Shown here one piece after another: positions 9,641 to 19,321 of a DNA stretch of 64,000 nucleotides. The DNA lies in NCBI RefSeq assembly GCF_053078305.1, contig NZ_CP166879.1, one strand, 5' to 3'. Both the position numbers and the translations under genes were made by a program. Numbering within the stretch: the first letter of the stretch is position 1; each line of letters opens with the position of its first letter. The notes beneath the pieces are model-generated. The model did not search any database, was not told the DNA's origin, and worked only from the letters and a program-made list of their open reading frames with translations.

Positions 9641-12025
9641 TTAGAATGAAAGCCCTTCACCATCAGCCACAATCCTGTACCCCATCGCCTTATAACCCCG
9701 CTGGCGTTTATCCCACATTCTGAGCAGCACTGGATACGCGGTATCCACAAAATCAATGATCCTGACATCGCTTTTACCGGTATGCTCTCTGTGTAGACGT
9801 CCCGCATACTGCTGTAACGTCCCTTTCCATGACACAGGCATGGCAAGAATCAGCGTATCCAGCGGAGGGTGGTCAAATCCCTCACCAATAAGTCTGCCTG
9901 TTGACAACAAAATACGGGGAGAATCAGGAGGAAGAGCATTCAGCCCGGAAATCATCATAGTACGCTTTTTTTTCGATAATCGACTATGGAGAACAAAAGG
10001 CGACAATTTCAGTGTGTTCATCACTGAGGCTATATCATCCAGATGATCTGTACGTTCAGTCAGTACCAGAACTTTACGCCCCTGCCCAAAAGCTTTCATG
10101 GCTTCTTCAGCTATCGCCACCGTTCTGTCATGATCCAGAGCAATTTCTCTGAAAATATCCTGGATTCTCGCATCCGATGGTAAATGACCAGATGTAAAAC
10201 GGGAACGGGTCAGCACCTCCAGATTATGTGGGCTTTCCTTCGGGCGGGACGCTGTATGGCGAATGGCACCACAGTACATAAAAATAATGGGGTGCAGACC
10301 ATCCCGTCGGATTGGTGTTGCCGTCAGGCCAAGCAGATATCTGGCATTCGTTTCCTTCAGAATCGCAGAAAATGAAACCGCGCCAATATGATGGCACTCA
10401 TCCACAATGATTTGCCCATAATTCCTGACCAGAGGTTCAACTTCTCCGTGTCTGGATATGGACTGCACCACCGCAATATCAATATTGCCACAGGGTTTAT
10501 GTTTCCCTCCCCCGATAATACCAATACTGTCACCGGCCTGCAGAAACACCGCGAGACGCTCCTGCCACTGCTTCAGCAATTCAGTCCGGTGTACCAGTAT
10601 CAGTGTATTCACTTTCCGTCTGGCAATCACTGCCGCTGCGGTAACTGTCTTACCAAAAGCCGTTGGCGCACAAAGCACACCAGTGTCATAACGGAGTAAT
10701 GCCGAAACGGCCTCTTCCTGCTCCGCTCTGAGGTTTCCCATAAAAACGGCATTACATTCCGTCCCGGCAAATCGTTTATCGATTAATTCTGCAGCAATAT
10801 TGTTGTCCCTAAGGAAAGATAATACGCTGTCCAGACATCCCCGGGGCAACGCAATGTGTTGCGGGTAATTCTCCGCACAACCTATAACACGGGGCTTATT
10901 CCAGACTGACATACGCATTGCCTGAGCCTTATAAAACTCAGGGTTCGGAAATGCTGCCAGCCGAATAAGTCGGTTAATCAGCACCTGAGGTAATTGCGCT
11001 TTTTCGAAATAGATCTGATTTGCCAGCGTGATTTTCAGCGGTTCAGCAACAGCAAGATTCAGTCTGTTTCCTGATGATTTTTTCCCTTCCCATGGCGTAC
11101 CCAGGTCTTCTTCGTTGATAAAGTTCACATCCAGAGGATGGATACTTCCTGTAGCCCGTAATATCGTCGGTTCAATATCCTGCACATTCATCGGGAGCAC
11201 CGACGCAAGAAAAGCCCACTGATCAGGATGAGGCTGGAAATTCATATCAACAAAAACACTTCCCCCCGATGCACGCGGTCTTTTTTGCAGAGGTAACGCG
11301 ATAAGATTACCAAATCCTCCTTTTGGCATCGTATCCTGATTAGGAAATAATCGGTCATAAGAACTCAATTGCAGCTGTCGGGTCCGGCTGCACGTATAGC
11401 TAATAACAGCAGTCCCCAGACGGCGAGCTTCGCGGGCCGAAACTCGTGAAGCAAAAAATATCCAGACATGCGCTCCCTGACGTGAGCGGGATATTTCCAG
11501 CACAGCGGGTACACCCAGCTCATCACAGGCTCGCATGAACGCGGATGCATCCTTCTGCCATTCAGCTTCATCAAAATCAACAGCCAGAAAATAACAGGAA
11601 TCATCTTCCAGCAACGGATATAACCCGGCAGTATGCGTGCCTGCCAGATGCTGGTAGATGACAAGATCAGATACAGGAATCAACTGACGGTGAACGCAGT
11701 CCCCACATTTTATCCGGGGCTTACCGCATATTCCCAACTGCCATTCGTTAGCGCAGGCCGGCGAGTACCCTGATTTGCCGCTGGTTTTACTTTCCCATCT
11801 AAGTGCCCATACATCATCACGCCCACGAAACAACCGACGAAATAATGCAACCTTCTCGTCGGTGGATAATACAGAAACGCGCTGCACAGGAGTCTGCGGT
11901 TTACGTCTCCATTCAATCCCATGAGCTTCAAGTAATGAGACCAGACGGGCATTTTCTGCCCTCAATGCAGCTAATTCATCGCTGTCAGATTTATGAACCA
12001 TATTCGTTACCTGTATCCGATCCAC
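9641..12025 (-). CDS. Superfamily-2 DEAD/DEAH (ResIII-like) helicase with N-terminal Cys/His-rich, possibly primase-polymerase-like domain
   Basis: 794 aa; helicase motifs AFGKTV (Walker A), IIVDECHH (DExH), LGLTATP, GEGFD, QQYAGRLHR; N-terminal C-x-C...C-x2-C-x-H cluster and VDFD...GAHVWIFF pattern; stop lies 18 bp from the PRTase stop (convergent). Confidence 0.7.
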   Translation of the reverse strand: MDRIQVTNMVHKSDSDELAALRAENARLVSLLEAHGIEWRRKPQTPVQRVSVLSTDEKVALFRRLFRGRDDVWALRWESKTSGKSGYSPACANEWQLGICGKPRIKCGDCVHRQLIPVSDLVIYQHLAGTHTAGLYPLLEDDSCYFLAVDFDEAEWQKDASAFMRACDELGVPAVLEISRSRQGAHVWIFFASRVSAREARRLGTAVISYTCSRTRQLQLSSYDRLFPNQDTMPKGGFGNLIALPLQKRPRASGGSVFVDMNFQPHPDQWAFLASVLPMNVQDIEPTILRATGSIHPLDVNFINEEDLGTPWEGKKSSGNRLNLAVAEPLKITLANQIYFEKAQLPQVLINRLIRLAAFPNPEFYKAQAMRMSVWNKPRVIGCAENYPQHIALPRGCLDSVLSFLRDNNIAAELIDKRFAGTECNAVFMGNLRAEQEEAVSALLRYDTGVLCAPTAFGKTVTAAAVIARRKVNTLILVHRTELLKQWQERLAVFLQAGDSIGIIGGGKHKPCGNIDIAVVQSISRHGEVEPLVRNYGQIIVDECHHIGAVSFSAILKETNARYLLGLTATPIRRDGLHPIIFMYCGAIRHTASRPKESPHNLEVLTRSRFTSGHLPSDARIQDIFREIALDHDRTVAIAEEAMKAFGQGRKVLVLTERTDHLDDIASVMNTLKLSPFVLHSRLSKKKRTMMISGLNALPPDSPRILLSTGRLIGEGFDHPPLDTLILAMPVSWKGTLQQYAGRLHREHTGKSDVRIIDFVDTAYPVLLRMWDKRQRGYKAMGYRIVADGEGLSF

Positions 12026-12151
12026 TGAGGCACCACGGCAAAAATTCGGGTCCCCTACACTGATGACAAAGCCGCCCTCTGCTGCCTATTAACTCAAGCA
12101 CCTCCCAACAACTTACAGAAACTTAATTCTAATACCTAATACAGCTGTAAT

Positions 12152-12715
12152 TCAGTTGTGTCGTGGTCGGCCGCGGTTACTTTTTTCGGGAAGCCTGCTA
12201 CGGCCCAGAATAATACCGTGTTCTTTCTGATCTTGTTTAGCCAGGTAGCTGAGGGCGTAACGTAAGTCGTCTACCGCAGATTTATCACTATAGTGAATCA
12301 CGTGATCGATACGCACCGGGTATTTGTCTTTAGCCCGGCACAGATGAAAATAACCCTCCCCTTCCGTGATCCGCCTCCAGATATCCCCCAGTTGCCTGGA
12401 TGTCTGATAAGAGTTCTTGTGACGTTGTCCATCCAGATAGCCGATAAAATGAATATGAAGCCCTTTGTCTGGTGTATATTCCATTACCCAGTAATATCCC
12501 GCCAGCATCGTTTGGGTTTCACTAAGTAAACGGTATATTTCAATACACATACTGTGCTTACAGGAATGCCCGAAACTGGGCGTGTCTTTCCTGTAGGCAA
12601 AATCAATTCTGAAAGGTAACAGTTTAGAAAAACGTTGAAACAGACCTTCCATGTGTTCATTCACGTCTTTCAGAATCGTGAAATTCATTTCGTAATTGGG
12701 GTTAGCATTATACAT
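12152..12715 (-). CDS. YagK/YfjJ-family (inovirus Gp2-like) cryptic-prophage protein
   Basis: 187 aa; position downstream of a yfjI-like gene and alpA matches the CP4-57/CP4-6 arrangement; family call is from memory, not a search. Confidence 0.5.
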   Translation of the reverse strand: MYNANPNYEMNFTILKDVNEHMEGLFQRFSKLLPFRIDFAYRKDTPSFGHSCKHSMCIEIYRLLSETQTMLAGYYWVMEYTPDKGLHIHFIGYLDGQRHKNSYQTSRQLGDIWRRITEGEGYFHLCRAKDKYPVRIDHVIHYSDKSAVDDLRYALSYLAKQDQKEHGIILGRSRLPEKSNRGRPRHN

Positions 12716-13677
12716 TTTATAGTCCTTACTTTATAAAACTCACAGGAAGAGGAAATTACGTAAATGCTGAGGATACAGAAACGTCGTACCACGGCATTAA
12801 TAAACTGGGTAACCAGTATGCAGACAACCTGATAAAACTGTTTCGTATTACCTCATTACAGTAATGGGAGTAATACTTCAGAATACAGTGAGACTCTCTT
12901 AAACTGAGGACCAGTACGAATTACAATGGTAAAAACACACCTCATAGAATTAAGTTTAAGAAAGTACCATTCAATCACTTACAGGAAGTAATCTGATCTT
13001 CACAAAAGTCAGCTATCGAATAGCCACAGGCAACATCGCTATTAGTATTGCCGTACCATTAAGTAAAAACAGAGACTCTGCAGAGAGAGCCTACAGATAT
13101 TTAACCTCACAATAAGAAGATTATTTCATACAGAAAAGATTATATTTACCCATACTTATAAACTGTAACGGAGATATAACGTACGAACTAAAGACAATAT
13201 ACTCTAATAGTGTTCCGGTACGTAACTAGTGTTAAATACAAACCAGACATACATTTAGTGGATTAACTTTCTCAATATTACGCTATGAGTGTAGTAACAT
13301 AATTTACACATAACTAAACCCCATACACCACCACACTGTAGTATATGGGGATAGACGCATTACGCACATACAGAATACTCAGCATAAAGAGGAGTGACAT
13401 TACGATAAAAAGAGACAACATAACTCCCATTAATAATACTAATTAACCTAAATTATTTATTGAATACGAAAACAATGAGGGGGTCTCCTCATCCAAGACT
13501 AAAGCCAGCAATATCCTGAACAACACTCTATCCAATAGTAAACAATGGTTATACCAGTTATATTTGCTGACTGATCTGTACCAGAGTTCTGTAATACAAC
13601 AACGCTGACATGGTAAAAGCATTAGTCTCCTCCGCAAGTAGCAGAGGAGACTATATGTTACTCAACGATTAAGTCGT

Positions 13678-16614: not shown

Positions 16615-18252
16615 ATGGTAACTCGGACAATGCAACAAAAGTATCAGTATGATCGTGTTTTATCCGGCGAACTCCACCCATTCCCTGGCATATACGAGGC
16701 GGTTTCCGAACAAATCCTTTTGCTCATTTTTAAAGCACGTCAACTATATCAGGATCCAGAATATCGCCCCTGGTTTGAAGAACAGCACAGAGTACTCTCT
16801 GCATTACGTGCCAATACAGAGCTCCTGAGAATCTTTAGAGAACAAAGAAGCGCTGAAGAACCAAAGCTTACTATTGAAGAGTCTACCTCCCCCCAACCCA
16901 CTCCTTCTGCTCTTACAGATGCGCTTAATGTGATGTGCCATATATACAATGGTTTTGATGAAGGAAATATCAGTCTGAAAACCTGGGGGGCGATGCAAGA
17001 GGTACAGACAACATCAACCTTTATCAGCCCAGGACCGAGAACCTGGAAAACACCTGAACTGGCAAAGTTTGTAGGAGATGATTTATTTAATATTCTGACT
17101 GAATGTAAGGCCTGGAGTTCACCAATTCCAGCAGAAACCCGACAGGGGTATTGCCATCAGGATCTGTCTGTTGCACACTCCTGCACCTCAGAGTTACTGG
17201 CACACCTGAATCAATATCATGAAATTGATGAATCAGCAATACTTGCCAGAGTTATTGGTATAACAGTTAACGGATTCTACAAGAAAAATAATACAGACCT
17301 TCCAGAATGGCTATCCCCCTTTAAAGAGGAACATAAAATATTCAGAGATTGTCCGGAGCAAAATACCGGGGATGTAATCAGACGGAAAGAACAACTGTTG
17401 AAAACAGGACGTACAGAATTCGTGAATAATTTGTGTCGGGTCGCCAACTGGTATGAAATTGAGTCAATATACGATGAATACGTCCGTCTTTATGCCAATG
17501 AAATCATTGACTGGTTCAACAAAACCATGAAGTATTTTAAACCAACAGATTTTATCCGATATACATGGAAATTCGCAACAGTTACTCCGGATAAAGATAC
17601 AGAAACCGGGCATACAACTGCATGGGAAAAGGATTATTGCCAGATAACCATACAACGTGATGAACTTCTGAGGTTGATTCACACCAATACCCTTCAGGAT
17701 GCAGTAATTTATCTTTGTCATTGTCTGCAGAAGGAATACAAGAAATCATCCCAAAATGAGATAGAGTTCCCAGGAATAAAACCTCCGACATCAGAGAGTA
17801 AAATTAATATAACAAATAATATTAAATTTCATTCTCTCCTGGAGCTCAGTAAAGATAATGAGAAGCGTCTGGAAACATTTCAAAAATGGTATGAAAAAAA
17901 TAAAGTTTTGTTAGAAAGTCATAAACAAAAACGAACAGAGAAGATTGACGTTGCCGTACGACTTGTAGGGCTGAAAGCCTATGATCTGCATGAAGGGATT
18001 CCGGATAGTCCAAAACGAAAAGTTAAAGATGGCATAAATGAAGACATCAAAGCCGATACCAGTTTACGCCTGTCAAAGACAAATATAAGTGATACGTCGC
18101 TAAACCGTTATCGCCGCACTGTTAAGGAGATTATCAATAACGAAATTGACGCATTCCTGTTGGAACAGAAGAAAAAAAATAAAAGATTTCCCTACAGTGA
18201 AGATAGAGATGTGATTCGACCTTTATGGGGAAAATGCCTGACCGGGCAGTAG
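16615..18252 (+). CDS. Hypothetical protein (545 aa), AT-rich, no recognisable motif
   Basis: Long ATG-initiated ORF in a low-GC region between alpA and thrW; product unknown. Confidence 0.45.
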   Translation: MVTRTMQQKYQYDRVLSGELHPFPGIYEAVSEQILLLIFKARQLYQDPEYRPWFEEQHRVLSALRANTELLRIFREQRSAEEPKLTIEESTSPQPTPSALTDALNVMCHIYNGFDEGNISLKTWGAMQEVQTTSTFISPGPRTWKTPELAKFVGDDLFNILTECKAWSSPIPAETRQGYCHQDLSVAHSCTSELLAHLNQYHEIDESAILARVIGITVNGFYKKNNTDLPEWLSPFKEEHKIFRDCPEQNTGDVIRRKEQLLKTGRTEFVNNLCRVANWYEIESIYDEYVRLYANEIIDWFNKTMKYFKPTDFIRYTWKFATVTPDKDTETGHTTAWEKDYCQITIQRDELLRLIHTNTLQDAVIYLCHCLQKEYKKSSQNEIEFPGIKPPTSESKINITNNIKFHSLLELSKDNEKRLETFQKWYEKNKVLLESHKQKRTEKIDVAVRLVGLKAYDLHEGIPDSPKRKVKDGINEDIKADTSLRLSKTNISDTSLNRYRRTVKEIINNEIDAFLLEQKKKNKRFPYSEDRDVIRPLWGKCLTGQ

Positions 18253-18338
18253 ATCACAGATGGGATAACATCCCGGTTATCCCCTGTTTGTTCTGCTTCA
18301 GGTTGCCAGAGCTCCAGGAACACGAGGCAATCGGCAAA

Positions 18339-18935
18339 TTATGCGGCTTTTCCATTAACAGATTCGACCACAAGAACAACACCGTGTTTGTTTCGATCAG
18401 GATGTTCACTCCAGATTTCTGATTCAGGAATACTTTCCCCATCATAGCAGATCCGATCACCATCAAACGGATAATACCGTGCGGAATCTGTATCTAAGAT
18501 AAACACCTTAAGATTCGTTGAACGACGCGCTATATGCTGCCAGAGGGCTTTACCTCCTTCATATTGCTCGTTATCACTTAATAGTATAACGCCTGCTTTT
18601 GTGGCTATTGTTTCATAAACAAACGTAGCAAGGCTAACATCACGTACAGCGCCATCGACAACAATCCCTTCAATCTGAGCAACGTCCTGTTCTTCCCAGA
18701 ATTTCCGGACAACCCCCCCTTCAAGCTGTGAACGACGCTGAAGCTCCAGAGTGGCAACAACCTTATAGCGAATATCACCATCAATAACAGAAGGTGCAGC
18801 TTCGATTACCGCAGCGAACGGAGTCTTTGGATCCCAGATGATCTGGTAAAGCACACCCTGAATAGTTACTCCATCCAGTATCGAAAAACGACGAGCTACA
18901 GTAGCAGGGGAGTAAGACATTGGAATGACAGCCAT
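18339..18935 (-). CDS. Hypothetical protein (198 aa) next to the tRNA attachment site; not integrase-like
   Basis: ORF convergent with the 545-aa gene; occupies the position usually held by an integrase but is too short and shows no tyrosine-recombinase pattern. Confidence 0.4.
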   Translation of the reverse strand: MAVIPMSYSPATVARRFSILDGVTIQGVLYQIIWDPKTPFAAVIEAAPSVIDGDIRYKVVATLELQRRSQLEGGVVRKFWEEQDVAQIEGIVVDGAVRDVSLATFVYETIATKAGVILLSDNEQYEGGKALWQHIARRSTNLKVFILDTDSARYYPFDGDRICYDGESIPESEIWSEHPDRNKHGVVLVVESVNGKAA

Positions 18936-19245
18936 TTTATGGCCTAAAATTTGAAAACATCAGTATCAATACTGACCTCATCAGTCTGAGCATATATTGA
19001 TAAAGTTTTTATGTTTACACTCAATAAATACCTTGCTAAACAACTAATAGCGATGTCTACATTGCCATTCGACATGCTTACAATTTTTGTCAACAAGAAA
19101 GTGAATTTATATCAACGGTAAGAAGTAAACACGAGGACACCAAAACCAAATGTATACACTTTTGTGCTTTGTGTCCCCTGTGTGTACCCAAATGACAAAC
19201 TGCAAGAAAATCTAGGCACACACTTATCTAACTTATTGATTTAAA

Positions 19246-19321
19246 TGGTGCCGATAATAGGAGTCGAACCTACGACCTTCGCATTACGAATGCGCTGCTC
19301 TACCAACTGAGCTATATCGGC
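19246..19321 (-). tRNA. thrW: tRNA-Thr (anticodon CGT)
   Basis: Reverse complement reads GCCGATATAGCTCAGTTGGTAGAGCAGCGCATTCGTAATGCGAAGGTCGTAGGTTCGACTCCTATTATCGGCACCA, 76 nt with cloverleaf-compatible stems and CCA end. Confidence 0.9.

Follow-up and report, generated by a model that had tools for sequence, protein, structure and literature searches.

A primase-polymerase fused to an SF2 ATPase beside a ShosTA-type pair in an Escherichia coli island: very probable identity with IEE

Tail to tail with a DprA-like/toxin gene pair, a 64,000-nucleotide stretch of DNA (contig NZ_CP166879.1 of assembly GCF_053078305.1; hereafter the window) carries a gene for a helicase-like protein. A preliminary description of the locus proposed that this protein might be the third component of a DprA/PRTase defence module, and the question is whether the two neighbours form one system or two. 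The window is E. coli DNA, and strains SI-NP020 and STEC17-190 match its positions 8000-12800 with 100% identity. The reading frame in the ORF list spans 9641..12025 on the minus strand, with 794 codons counted from a GTG, and its translation contains every motif that had been quoted for it. RefSeq and the literature place the start at the ATG at 12001, which yields 786 aa. We adopt this coding sequence (9641..12001, minus strand), supported by the ORF list, the RefSeq protein WP_028131445 of a 100% identical strain, the alignment to strain EDL933 and the published residue numbering. RefSeq names the product 'TOTE conflict system archaeo-eukaryotic primase domain-containing protein'.

Domain architecture of the fusion protein

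The N-terminal part of the protein is an AEP primase-polymerase domain, delimited by Pfam, PDB sequence search, Foldseek and alignments to residues 57-285 (11147..11833, minus strand). This region matches the Pfam family PF22548 (AEP-TOTE) with an E-value of 1.4e-97, and Pfam DNA_primase_S also matches the protein (E 9e-8). The motifs of a PrimPol-type AEP are all in place: hDhD (motif A) as D142-x-D144 in VDFD, sxH (motif B) as S171..G176-x-H178 in GAHVWIFF, and hD (motif C) at D216. In alignments of 37 and 51 sequences, D142/D144, S171, S173, G176, H178 and D216 are invariant or nearly so. A PDB sequence search with the AEP part retrieves the Marinitoga Prim-Pol structures 7nqd/7nqf (E 1.8e-8). 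The predicted model of residues 1-320 (pLDDT 85) finds the CAPP Prim-Pol 7nqe as its best PDB match in Foldseek, with an E-value of 6.4e-16 and a TM-score of 0.80 on the target; Prim-PolC and LigD polymerase domains (PolDom) rank next. The primase-polymerase-like fold that had been suggested for the N-terminal region is thus confirmed by domain family, by sequence and by predicted structure.

With about 23% identity, the Marinitoga CAPP (7nqd/7nqe/7nqf) is the closest solved AEP fold. It is named a TPR_REGION domain-containing protein in the PDB entries, whereas the AEP domain of the window protein is fused to an SF2 ATPase. The PADLOC model for Cas-associated PrimPol matches the window protein with an E-value of 8e-141, and NCBIfam reports CRISPR-associated PrimPol, RadD and XPB families, all under their curated cut-offs. 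CAPP is CRISPR-associated by name, unlike the surroundings of the window gene: the features annotated up to 12 kb from it include no CRISPR or cas gene.

Inside the AEP domain lies a Cys4 cluster, C83-x8-C92-x6-C99-x2-C102 (11696..11755, minus strand), identified from the alignments. The cysteine cluster noticed earlier in the N-terminal part holds up well: each of the four residues is at least 90% conserved in the alignments of 37 and 51 homologues, which cover many phyla. Judging from this conservation, the cluster probably binds a structural metal, with zinc as the candidate. A word search finds no 'cysteine' in the main text of the biochemistry paper on the protein discussed below (PMC9943667).

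Between the two catalytic parts, the predicted model has a beta-rich connector at residues of about 320-420 (10742..11044, minus strand), preceding the first RecA-like lobe. Its strands (322-333, 350-352, 372-385 and 404-408) have pLDDT values above 90 in the AlphaFold2 model; the full-length model, built from 51 homologues, reaches a pLDDT of 91.3 and a pTM of 0.87. The top fold alignments to XPB/TFIIH run over 670-718 columns, far past the helicase core and at high rmsd, while the match to phrog_16, a 'DNA helicase' family, covers residues 372-754.

The SF2 DExH ATPase core occupies residues 423-754 (9740..10735, minus strand; Pfam, PDB and Foldseek). Pfam places ResIII at 431-573 (E 5.7e-24) and Helicase_C at 647-746. 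Two RecA-like lobes carry the motifs of the XPB/UvsW/RadD-like SF2 group: APTAFGKTV (I, with K451), IIVDECHH (II, DECH at 534-537), LTATP (III), GEGFD (V) and QQYAGRLHR (VI, with R735). A PDB sequence search with the ATPase part returns archaeal XPBII (6p4f, E 1e-20) and RadD, and Foldseek returns T4 UvsW (2oca, E 1.6e-20) and XPB. Archaeal XPB, T4 UvsW and E. coli RadD are the best matches in both sequence and fold over residues of about 320-780; unlike the window protein, none of the three is fused to a polymerase. The C-terminal two thirds of the protein are therefore an XPB/RadD/UvsW-like SF2 DExH ATPase. No RecQ family occurs among its NCBIfam, Pfam, PDB or Foldseek matches, and the likeness to RecQ-type helicases drawn in the preliminary description gives way to XPB, RadD, ResIII and UvsW as the best families.

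Identity with IEE and its reported activities

[quoted passage not shown] IEE of EHEC O157:H7 (ECs1305; AAG55274; UniProt A0A0H3JF09) has 786 aa; Calvo et al. 2023 (PMC9943667) describe residues 1-290 as an AEP of the 'Z1568-like family' and residues 291-786 as the SF2 domain to which it is fused. Strain EDL933 has a single copy of iee, and the window protein is identical to its 786-aa product at 749 of 782 positions (96%), with 33 substitutions. In the survey made by the same study, 98.8% of IEE proteins from E. coli are more than 95% identical to the O157:H7 protein (Calvo et al., PMC9943667). Y128, D142, D144, S171, Q175, G176, H178, D216, K451 and R735 carry the same numbers in the EDL933 alignment. 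Among them, the catalytic D142, D144, D216 and H178, the steric-gate position Y128, the Walker lysine K451 and the arginine finger R735 are all present and are invariant or nearly so in homologues.

The genomic setting agrees as well. The window and EDL933 share a backbone in the order HTH/AlpA, DUF3987/YfjI, Gp2-type (YagK/YfjJ), iee. The YagK/YfjJ gene (inovirus Gp2-type; 12152..12715, minus strand, RefSeq annotation) lies upstream of iee on the same strand and keeps this order in EDL933 and strain 190693. No homologue of it was found in 80 loci of IEE homologues from other species; it is island backbone and not a conserved partner of iee. The O157:H7 and window copies thus agree in length, architecture, catalytic residues and neighbouring backbone genes. 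They differ in that the window copy sits in a thrW island with an intact ShosTA downstream, whereas O157 retains only a 453-nt shosT stub beside an IS30 fragment. The only Rfam matches are to tRNA-Thr. Because of the 96% identity, the named residues at the same numbers and the same flanking backbone, we identify the gene as iee, the orthologue of the O157:H7 gene, and hold with high confidence that it stands alone, in an integrative island located at tRNA-Thr (thrW) beside proA, and that the convergent ShosTA pair is an independent module. IEE is already known, from a description of 2011 and a biochemical study of 2023. The preliminary description had missed that the protein is a named and biochemically characterised one.

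The activities of the O157 allele have been reported in some detail. [quoted passage not shown] ATP hydrolysis by the C-terminal domain (K451) is DNA-dependent; the domain did not unwind the test duplexes, yet strand displacement requires it, as does the synapsis of two 3' ends. Given 3' overhangs with a common microhomology of 4 nt or more, the full-length protein joins them, and recombinant IEE works alone (PMC9943667). We found no mention of 'primase activity' in the same paper. The mechanism in vivo is still debated between two models: end joining after transposase-made double-strand breaks (PMC9943667), and strand switching during copy-out, which aborts transposition (10.1101/2023.06.07.543989).

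As every catalytic residue is kept and identity is 96%, the IEE of the window should be active like the O157 protein. It would act alone, since homologues elsewhere have no conserved partner gene. In the mechanism that we propose, the AEP and SF2 domains together would join 3' overhangs sharing microhomology, and the protein would raise transposase-dependent IS excision and IS-adjacent deletions; the adjoining ShosTA would be a defence module of its own, a two-gene toxin-antitoxin pair in the same cargo region of the island. Pol theta and the AgaPP/AgaPH module offer a parallel, as both combine a polymerase with a helicase-like ATPase in microhomology-mediated end joining, as IEE does. Pol theta has a family A polymerase, unlike the AEP of IEE; the AgaPP/AgaPH module serves replication and, unlike the fused IEE, consists of two proteins, AgaPP and a DUF3987 helicase.

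The ShosTA pair and the history of the junction

The two genes that converge on iee match the ShosTA models of PADLOC. shosA, encoding the DprA-like antitoxin (8101..9000, plus strand), matches PADLOC ShosA PDLC03961 (E 4e-103), NCBIfam dprA (E 8e-49) and the PDB structure of ShosA, 9vzo (E 4.7e-21). shosT, the toxin gene (8997..9623, plus strand), overlaps shosA by 4 nt and matches PADLOC ShosT PDLC03962 (E 2e-50). The two PADLOC matches lead us to regard the pair as a toxin-antitoxin defence cassette of the ShosTA type. Its order, with a DprA-like gene overlapping a toxin gene, is that of ShosTA from E. coli APEC O1, whose two genes protect in BL21 and whose ShosA reportedly promotes recombination at repeats of 6-8 bp. 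The 208-aa ShosT of the window has no Pfam or PDB match, so that its assignment as a PRTase derives from the PADLOC model, and the ShosA of the window is only distantly related to the solved protein (E 4.7e-21). We therefore take the pair for a divergent subtype of ShosTA. The helicase encoded by iee is no part of this system.

The stops of shosT (9623) and iee (9641) leave 17 nt between them (9624..9640), and not the 18 bp first given. A terminator scan reveals no hairpin terminator in this gap, and promoter-like sites are no commoner than in shuffled sequence. Since the genes are convergent, iee and shosTA do not form an operon.

Does the pairing recur elsewhere? A word-indexed protein search returned near-identical E. 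coli clusters only, and diversity was instead sampled by a search of cluster representatives and a genome scan. The scan, with one genome per species, yielded 80 loci with IEE homologues 45-71% identical to the query, from Proteobacteria, Acidobacteria, Planctomycetes, Verrucomicrobia, Firmicutes, Cyanobacteria and other groups; at least 2 kb of downstream sequence was available in 64 of them. By tblastn, ShosT is found at none of the 80 loci and a DprA-like match, a weak one, at a single locus. The reciprocal view is the same. In Salmonella, Serratia, Klebsiella and Tolumonas, each ShosT homologue (55-76% identical) is preceded by a DprA-like gene, in most cases with the 4-nt overlap, and in none of these four genera is an AEP-helicase present within 6 kb. 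The Serratia gene lies in a P2-like prophage between a replication gene and a portal gene, and the Tolumonas gene lies inside a lambdoid prophage. Outside E. coli, the helicase and DprA-like/PRTase pairs thus fail to co-occur in these samples; this is the outcome that the preliminary description had itself named as refuting the linkage, and the helicase as a third component of the module is refuted on this count.

Within E. coli the two neighbours have a common history. Near-full-length iee (at least 80% of the query) is present in 683 of 5426 complete genomes, compared with 37 for near-full-length ShosTA at the same threshold, and ShosTA is truncated in about 95% of the iee-positive genomes. 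The same junction, with 218 nt or more of the end of shosT, is found in 684 genomes. Since almost every iee-positive genome has such a remnant of shosT, iee and ShosTA already adjoined each other in the ancestral E. coli element, so that some interplay between them is conceivable. Truncation patterns were read from an evenly spaced sample of E. coli records, in every one of which iee is annotated as a CDS. In most of the other sampled records, O157:H7 included, shosT has shrunk to its final 453 nt, beside an IS30 fragment, and in a smaller group to its final 218 nt; in O157:H7, iee is annotated as an intact CDS next to the stub. The loss of shosTA beside an IS30 fragment is the kind of IS-adjacent deletion that IEE reportedly promotes. 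Like the nearly invariant Cys4 cluster, the fused forms of the family and the 5' stubs described below, the ancestral iee-shosT junction may be of interest to specialists. Many E. coli genomes have lost all of iee but a 5' stub, with the island backbone otherwise retained, and in Nissle 1917 and strain 190693 the genes beyond this stub are unrelated to ShosTA. In the related K-12 prophage CP4-57, we take yfjK/yfjL (AbpAB) to occupy the equivalent slot after yfjJ.

These observations bear directly on the proposal that the helicase belongs with the pair in a three-gene DprA/PRTase/helicase defence system resembling RqlHI. The physical adjacency of iee and shosT across 17 nt, a junction common to essentially all iee-positive E. 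coli genomes, and an overlap in theme, with ShosA acting at 6-8 bp repeats and IEE at microhomologies of at least 4 nt, would all fit such a system. Yet the genes are convergent and are not co-transcribed, neither module accompanies the other in the species and genera sampled above, apart from the one weak DprA-like match, and iee remains near full length in E. coli where ShosTA is mostly truncated. Each of the two has also been reported to work without the other, ShosTA in BL21 and IEE in the studies cited above (PMC9943667; 10.1101/2023.06.07.543989). The analogy to RqlHI fails as well, because the helicase is XPB/RadD/UvsW-like and matches no RecQ family. We consider a three-gene system highly improbable; the adjacency of iee and ShosTA looks like co-residence in island cargo and not like a functional link.

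The wider family and its possible roles

Fusions of AEP and SF2 domains are very common: the representative search returned 3276 cluster representatives at E<=1e-30, the best 150 of which are mostly full length. With the Pfam matches, this count shows that the reading frame is real and no product of chance. Some variants of the IEE family carry a C-terminal PLD nuclease, an N-terminal PNP_UDP_1 domain or an FMN_red-like (flavodoxin-like) domain, and relatives of IEE are often found among toxin-antitoxin genes. Clustering of neighbouring ORFs in the 80 loci returned mostly shadow ORFs of the helicase gene, and only three kinds of neighbour recur: directly upstream, a gene encoding some 185 aa (12 loci), then RhuM-like genes (8) and AbiEi-like genes (5). 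As none of the three occurs in the window, they are not universal partners of IEE.

The name given by RefSeq invokes another class of systems. TOTE conflict systems were reportedly described by Aravind, Iyer and Burroughs in 2022. The acronym stands for TPR, OB, TBP and Effector (PMC12458937). IEE shares with these systems the AEP-TOTE domain family (PF22548), and hence the effector, but the neighbours of iee in the window include no TPR-OB or TBP partner. Such a partner is likewise absent from the Pfam tables of five homologue loci, and a CspA probe, which has low sensitivity, detects no cold-shock domain in the 80 loci. The literature searched yielded no mention of AEP-TOTE or PF22548. Because only the domain family is shared, the RefSeq name is no evidence of a TOTE system at this locus.

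The same data allow other roles for IEE to be weighed. Its native role could be that of an effector of conflict or defence that acts by itself on phages, plasmids or transposons, with IS excision as a by-product. The 'TOTE conflict system' label of its AEP domain in Pfam and RefSeq points in this direction, as do the strong match to the PADLOC Cas-associated PrimPol model, the relatives fused to nuclease, PNP_UDP_1 or FMN_red domains among toxin-antitoxin genes, and the position of iee at the variable cargo end of the island, beside ShosTA, where other strains have other cargo in its place. A preprint by Chandler further proposes that IEE aborts copy-out-paste-in transposition. Against this stand the absence of TOTE partners and of cold-shock matches in the loci listed above, the lack of any anti-phage phenotype of IEE in the literature searched, and an E. 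coli protein without a nuclease or other effector domain; we regard such a native role as unlikely. A bolder version, in which the family consists of immune effectors that sense replication or transposition intermediates and abort them by template switching or end joining, and in which iee and ShosTA lie together because they work in synergy, both acting for instance on ssDNA intermediates of phages or transposons, appears decidedly unlikely to us. Finally, IEE might be the replication primase-helicase of its integrative island, comparable to modules of a PrimPol with a DUF3987 helicase: many mobile elements are replicated by AEP primase-polymerases with helicases, and a DUF3987/YfjI helicase-like gene lies 1.6 kb upstream of iee. 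Purified IEE, however, extends with dNTPs and not NTPs and does not unwind (10.1101/2023.06.07.543989; PMC9943667), and the biochemistry paper, when searched, gave no mention of 'primase activity'. In addition, many E. coli islands with an otherwise retained backbone have no more of iee than its 5' stub, and some homologues lie in chromosomal contexts without other mobile-element genes. We reject the island replication primase, and assign it a very low probability, because IEE reportedly neither unwinds duplexes nor uses NTPs and because related islands dispense with iee. The reading of the gene as a stand-alone iee beside an independent ShosTA remains the one that we prefer.

Because the protein is the already known IEE, the locus is of low interest and carries little weight as a discovery; its analysis removes the false lead of a three-gene variant of ShosTA and allows the RefSeq label of the gene to be replaced by the correct annotation, iee. 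For the family as a whole, the variants keep a broader conflict role open and give no support to a linkage with ShosTA: the fusions to PLD nuclease, nucleoside-phosphorylase-like and flavodoxin-like domains hint at roles of the family in biological conflict.

A putative metal site and domain fusions in the IEE family

Four cysteines (C83, C92, C99 and C102) form a cluster within the AEP primase-polymerase domain of the IS-excision enhancer IEE and are nearly invariant across the family; residues 83-102 are encoded at window positions 11696-11755. The cluster is likely to be a metal site; the main text of the paper on IEE biochemistry (PMC9943667) nowhere uses the word "cysteine". Family variants also carry additional domains: a PLD nuclease domain fused at the C-terminus, and a nucleoside phosphorylase-like PNP_UDP_1 domain or an FMN_red-like domain fused at the N-terminus (L086 8001-10898; L099 2090-5305; L101 7001-10234). 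Among 80 loci with IEE homologues from other species, 12 have an uncharacterized gene of ~185 aa directly upstream (L007 9331-9888, L009 4686-5315, L015 5540-6085 and nine other loci), which is co-directional with the IEE homologue, separated from it by a gap of ~45 nt, and preceded by a RhuM-like gene in 8 loci. This gene is not present in E. coli.

The island backbone and its flanks

Within the island backbone, the 545-aa ORF at 16615-18252 (plus strand) has no match in Pfam, NCBIfam, PADLOC or PHROGs; the equivalent position in EDL933, between the integrase and AlpA, holds a 605-aa hypothetical protein. The island ends at a tRNA-Thr gene with anticodon CGT (19246-19321), adjoining proA. Only short ORFs are found at 18300-19321, where an integrase would be expected; strain SI-NP020 has an IS66 copy in this region, which is absent from the window. 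The Gp2-type and YfjI/DUF3987 genes are separated by ~960 bp poor in ORFs (12716-13677), in a section of the window that has ~40% G+C. The minus strand of this interval carries several hairpin-plus-T-run sites, and Rfam gave no match there. A contact-dependent inhibition locus (1-7513, minus strand) occupies the sequence left of the ShosTA cassette. Of its cdiA gene, the 5' part is present and extends beyond the start of the window; a frameshift divides cdiB into ORFs 5746-7230 and 7214-7513.

A divergent ShosTA cassette

Judged by its sequence, the DprA-like/toxin pair at 8101-9623 represents a divergent subtype of ShosTA. In a PDB sequence search, its ShosA matches the solved ShosA at an E-value of only 4.7e-21, and the 208-aa ShosT has no match in Pfam or PDB. 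The same cassette is carried by prophages in two genera, P2-like in Serratia and lambdoid in Tolumonas, and occupies chromosomal sites in Salmonella and Klebsiella (loci L088-L098).

Gene loss and possible gene exchange around iee in E. coli

In ~1000 further E. coli genomes, only the start of iee is matched, over 250-370 nt and with 84-87% identity. Both such genomes examined, Nissle 1917 (L003 8023-8233) and strain 190693 (L004 7997-8332), retain iee as a 5' pseudogene stub with other genes behind it; those in strain 190693 encode an AAA protein of 1652 aa and a hypothetical protein of 478 aa. The stubs suggest cargo exchange with a breakpoint within iee. In most of the sampled iee-positive E. 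coli genomes, a deletion has removed shosA and truncated shosT from the 5' side. The shosT stub that remains measures 453 nt or 218 nt and in most cases adjoins an IS30 transposase fragment (in EDL933, L002 6267-6823). IEE is reported to promote IS-adjacent deletions (PMC9943667; preprint 10.1101/2023.06.07.543989). The partial loss of shosTA is a deletion of this reported kind, directly beside iee itself.
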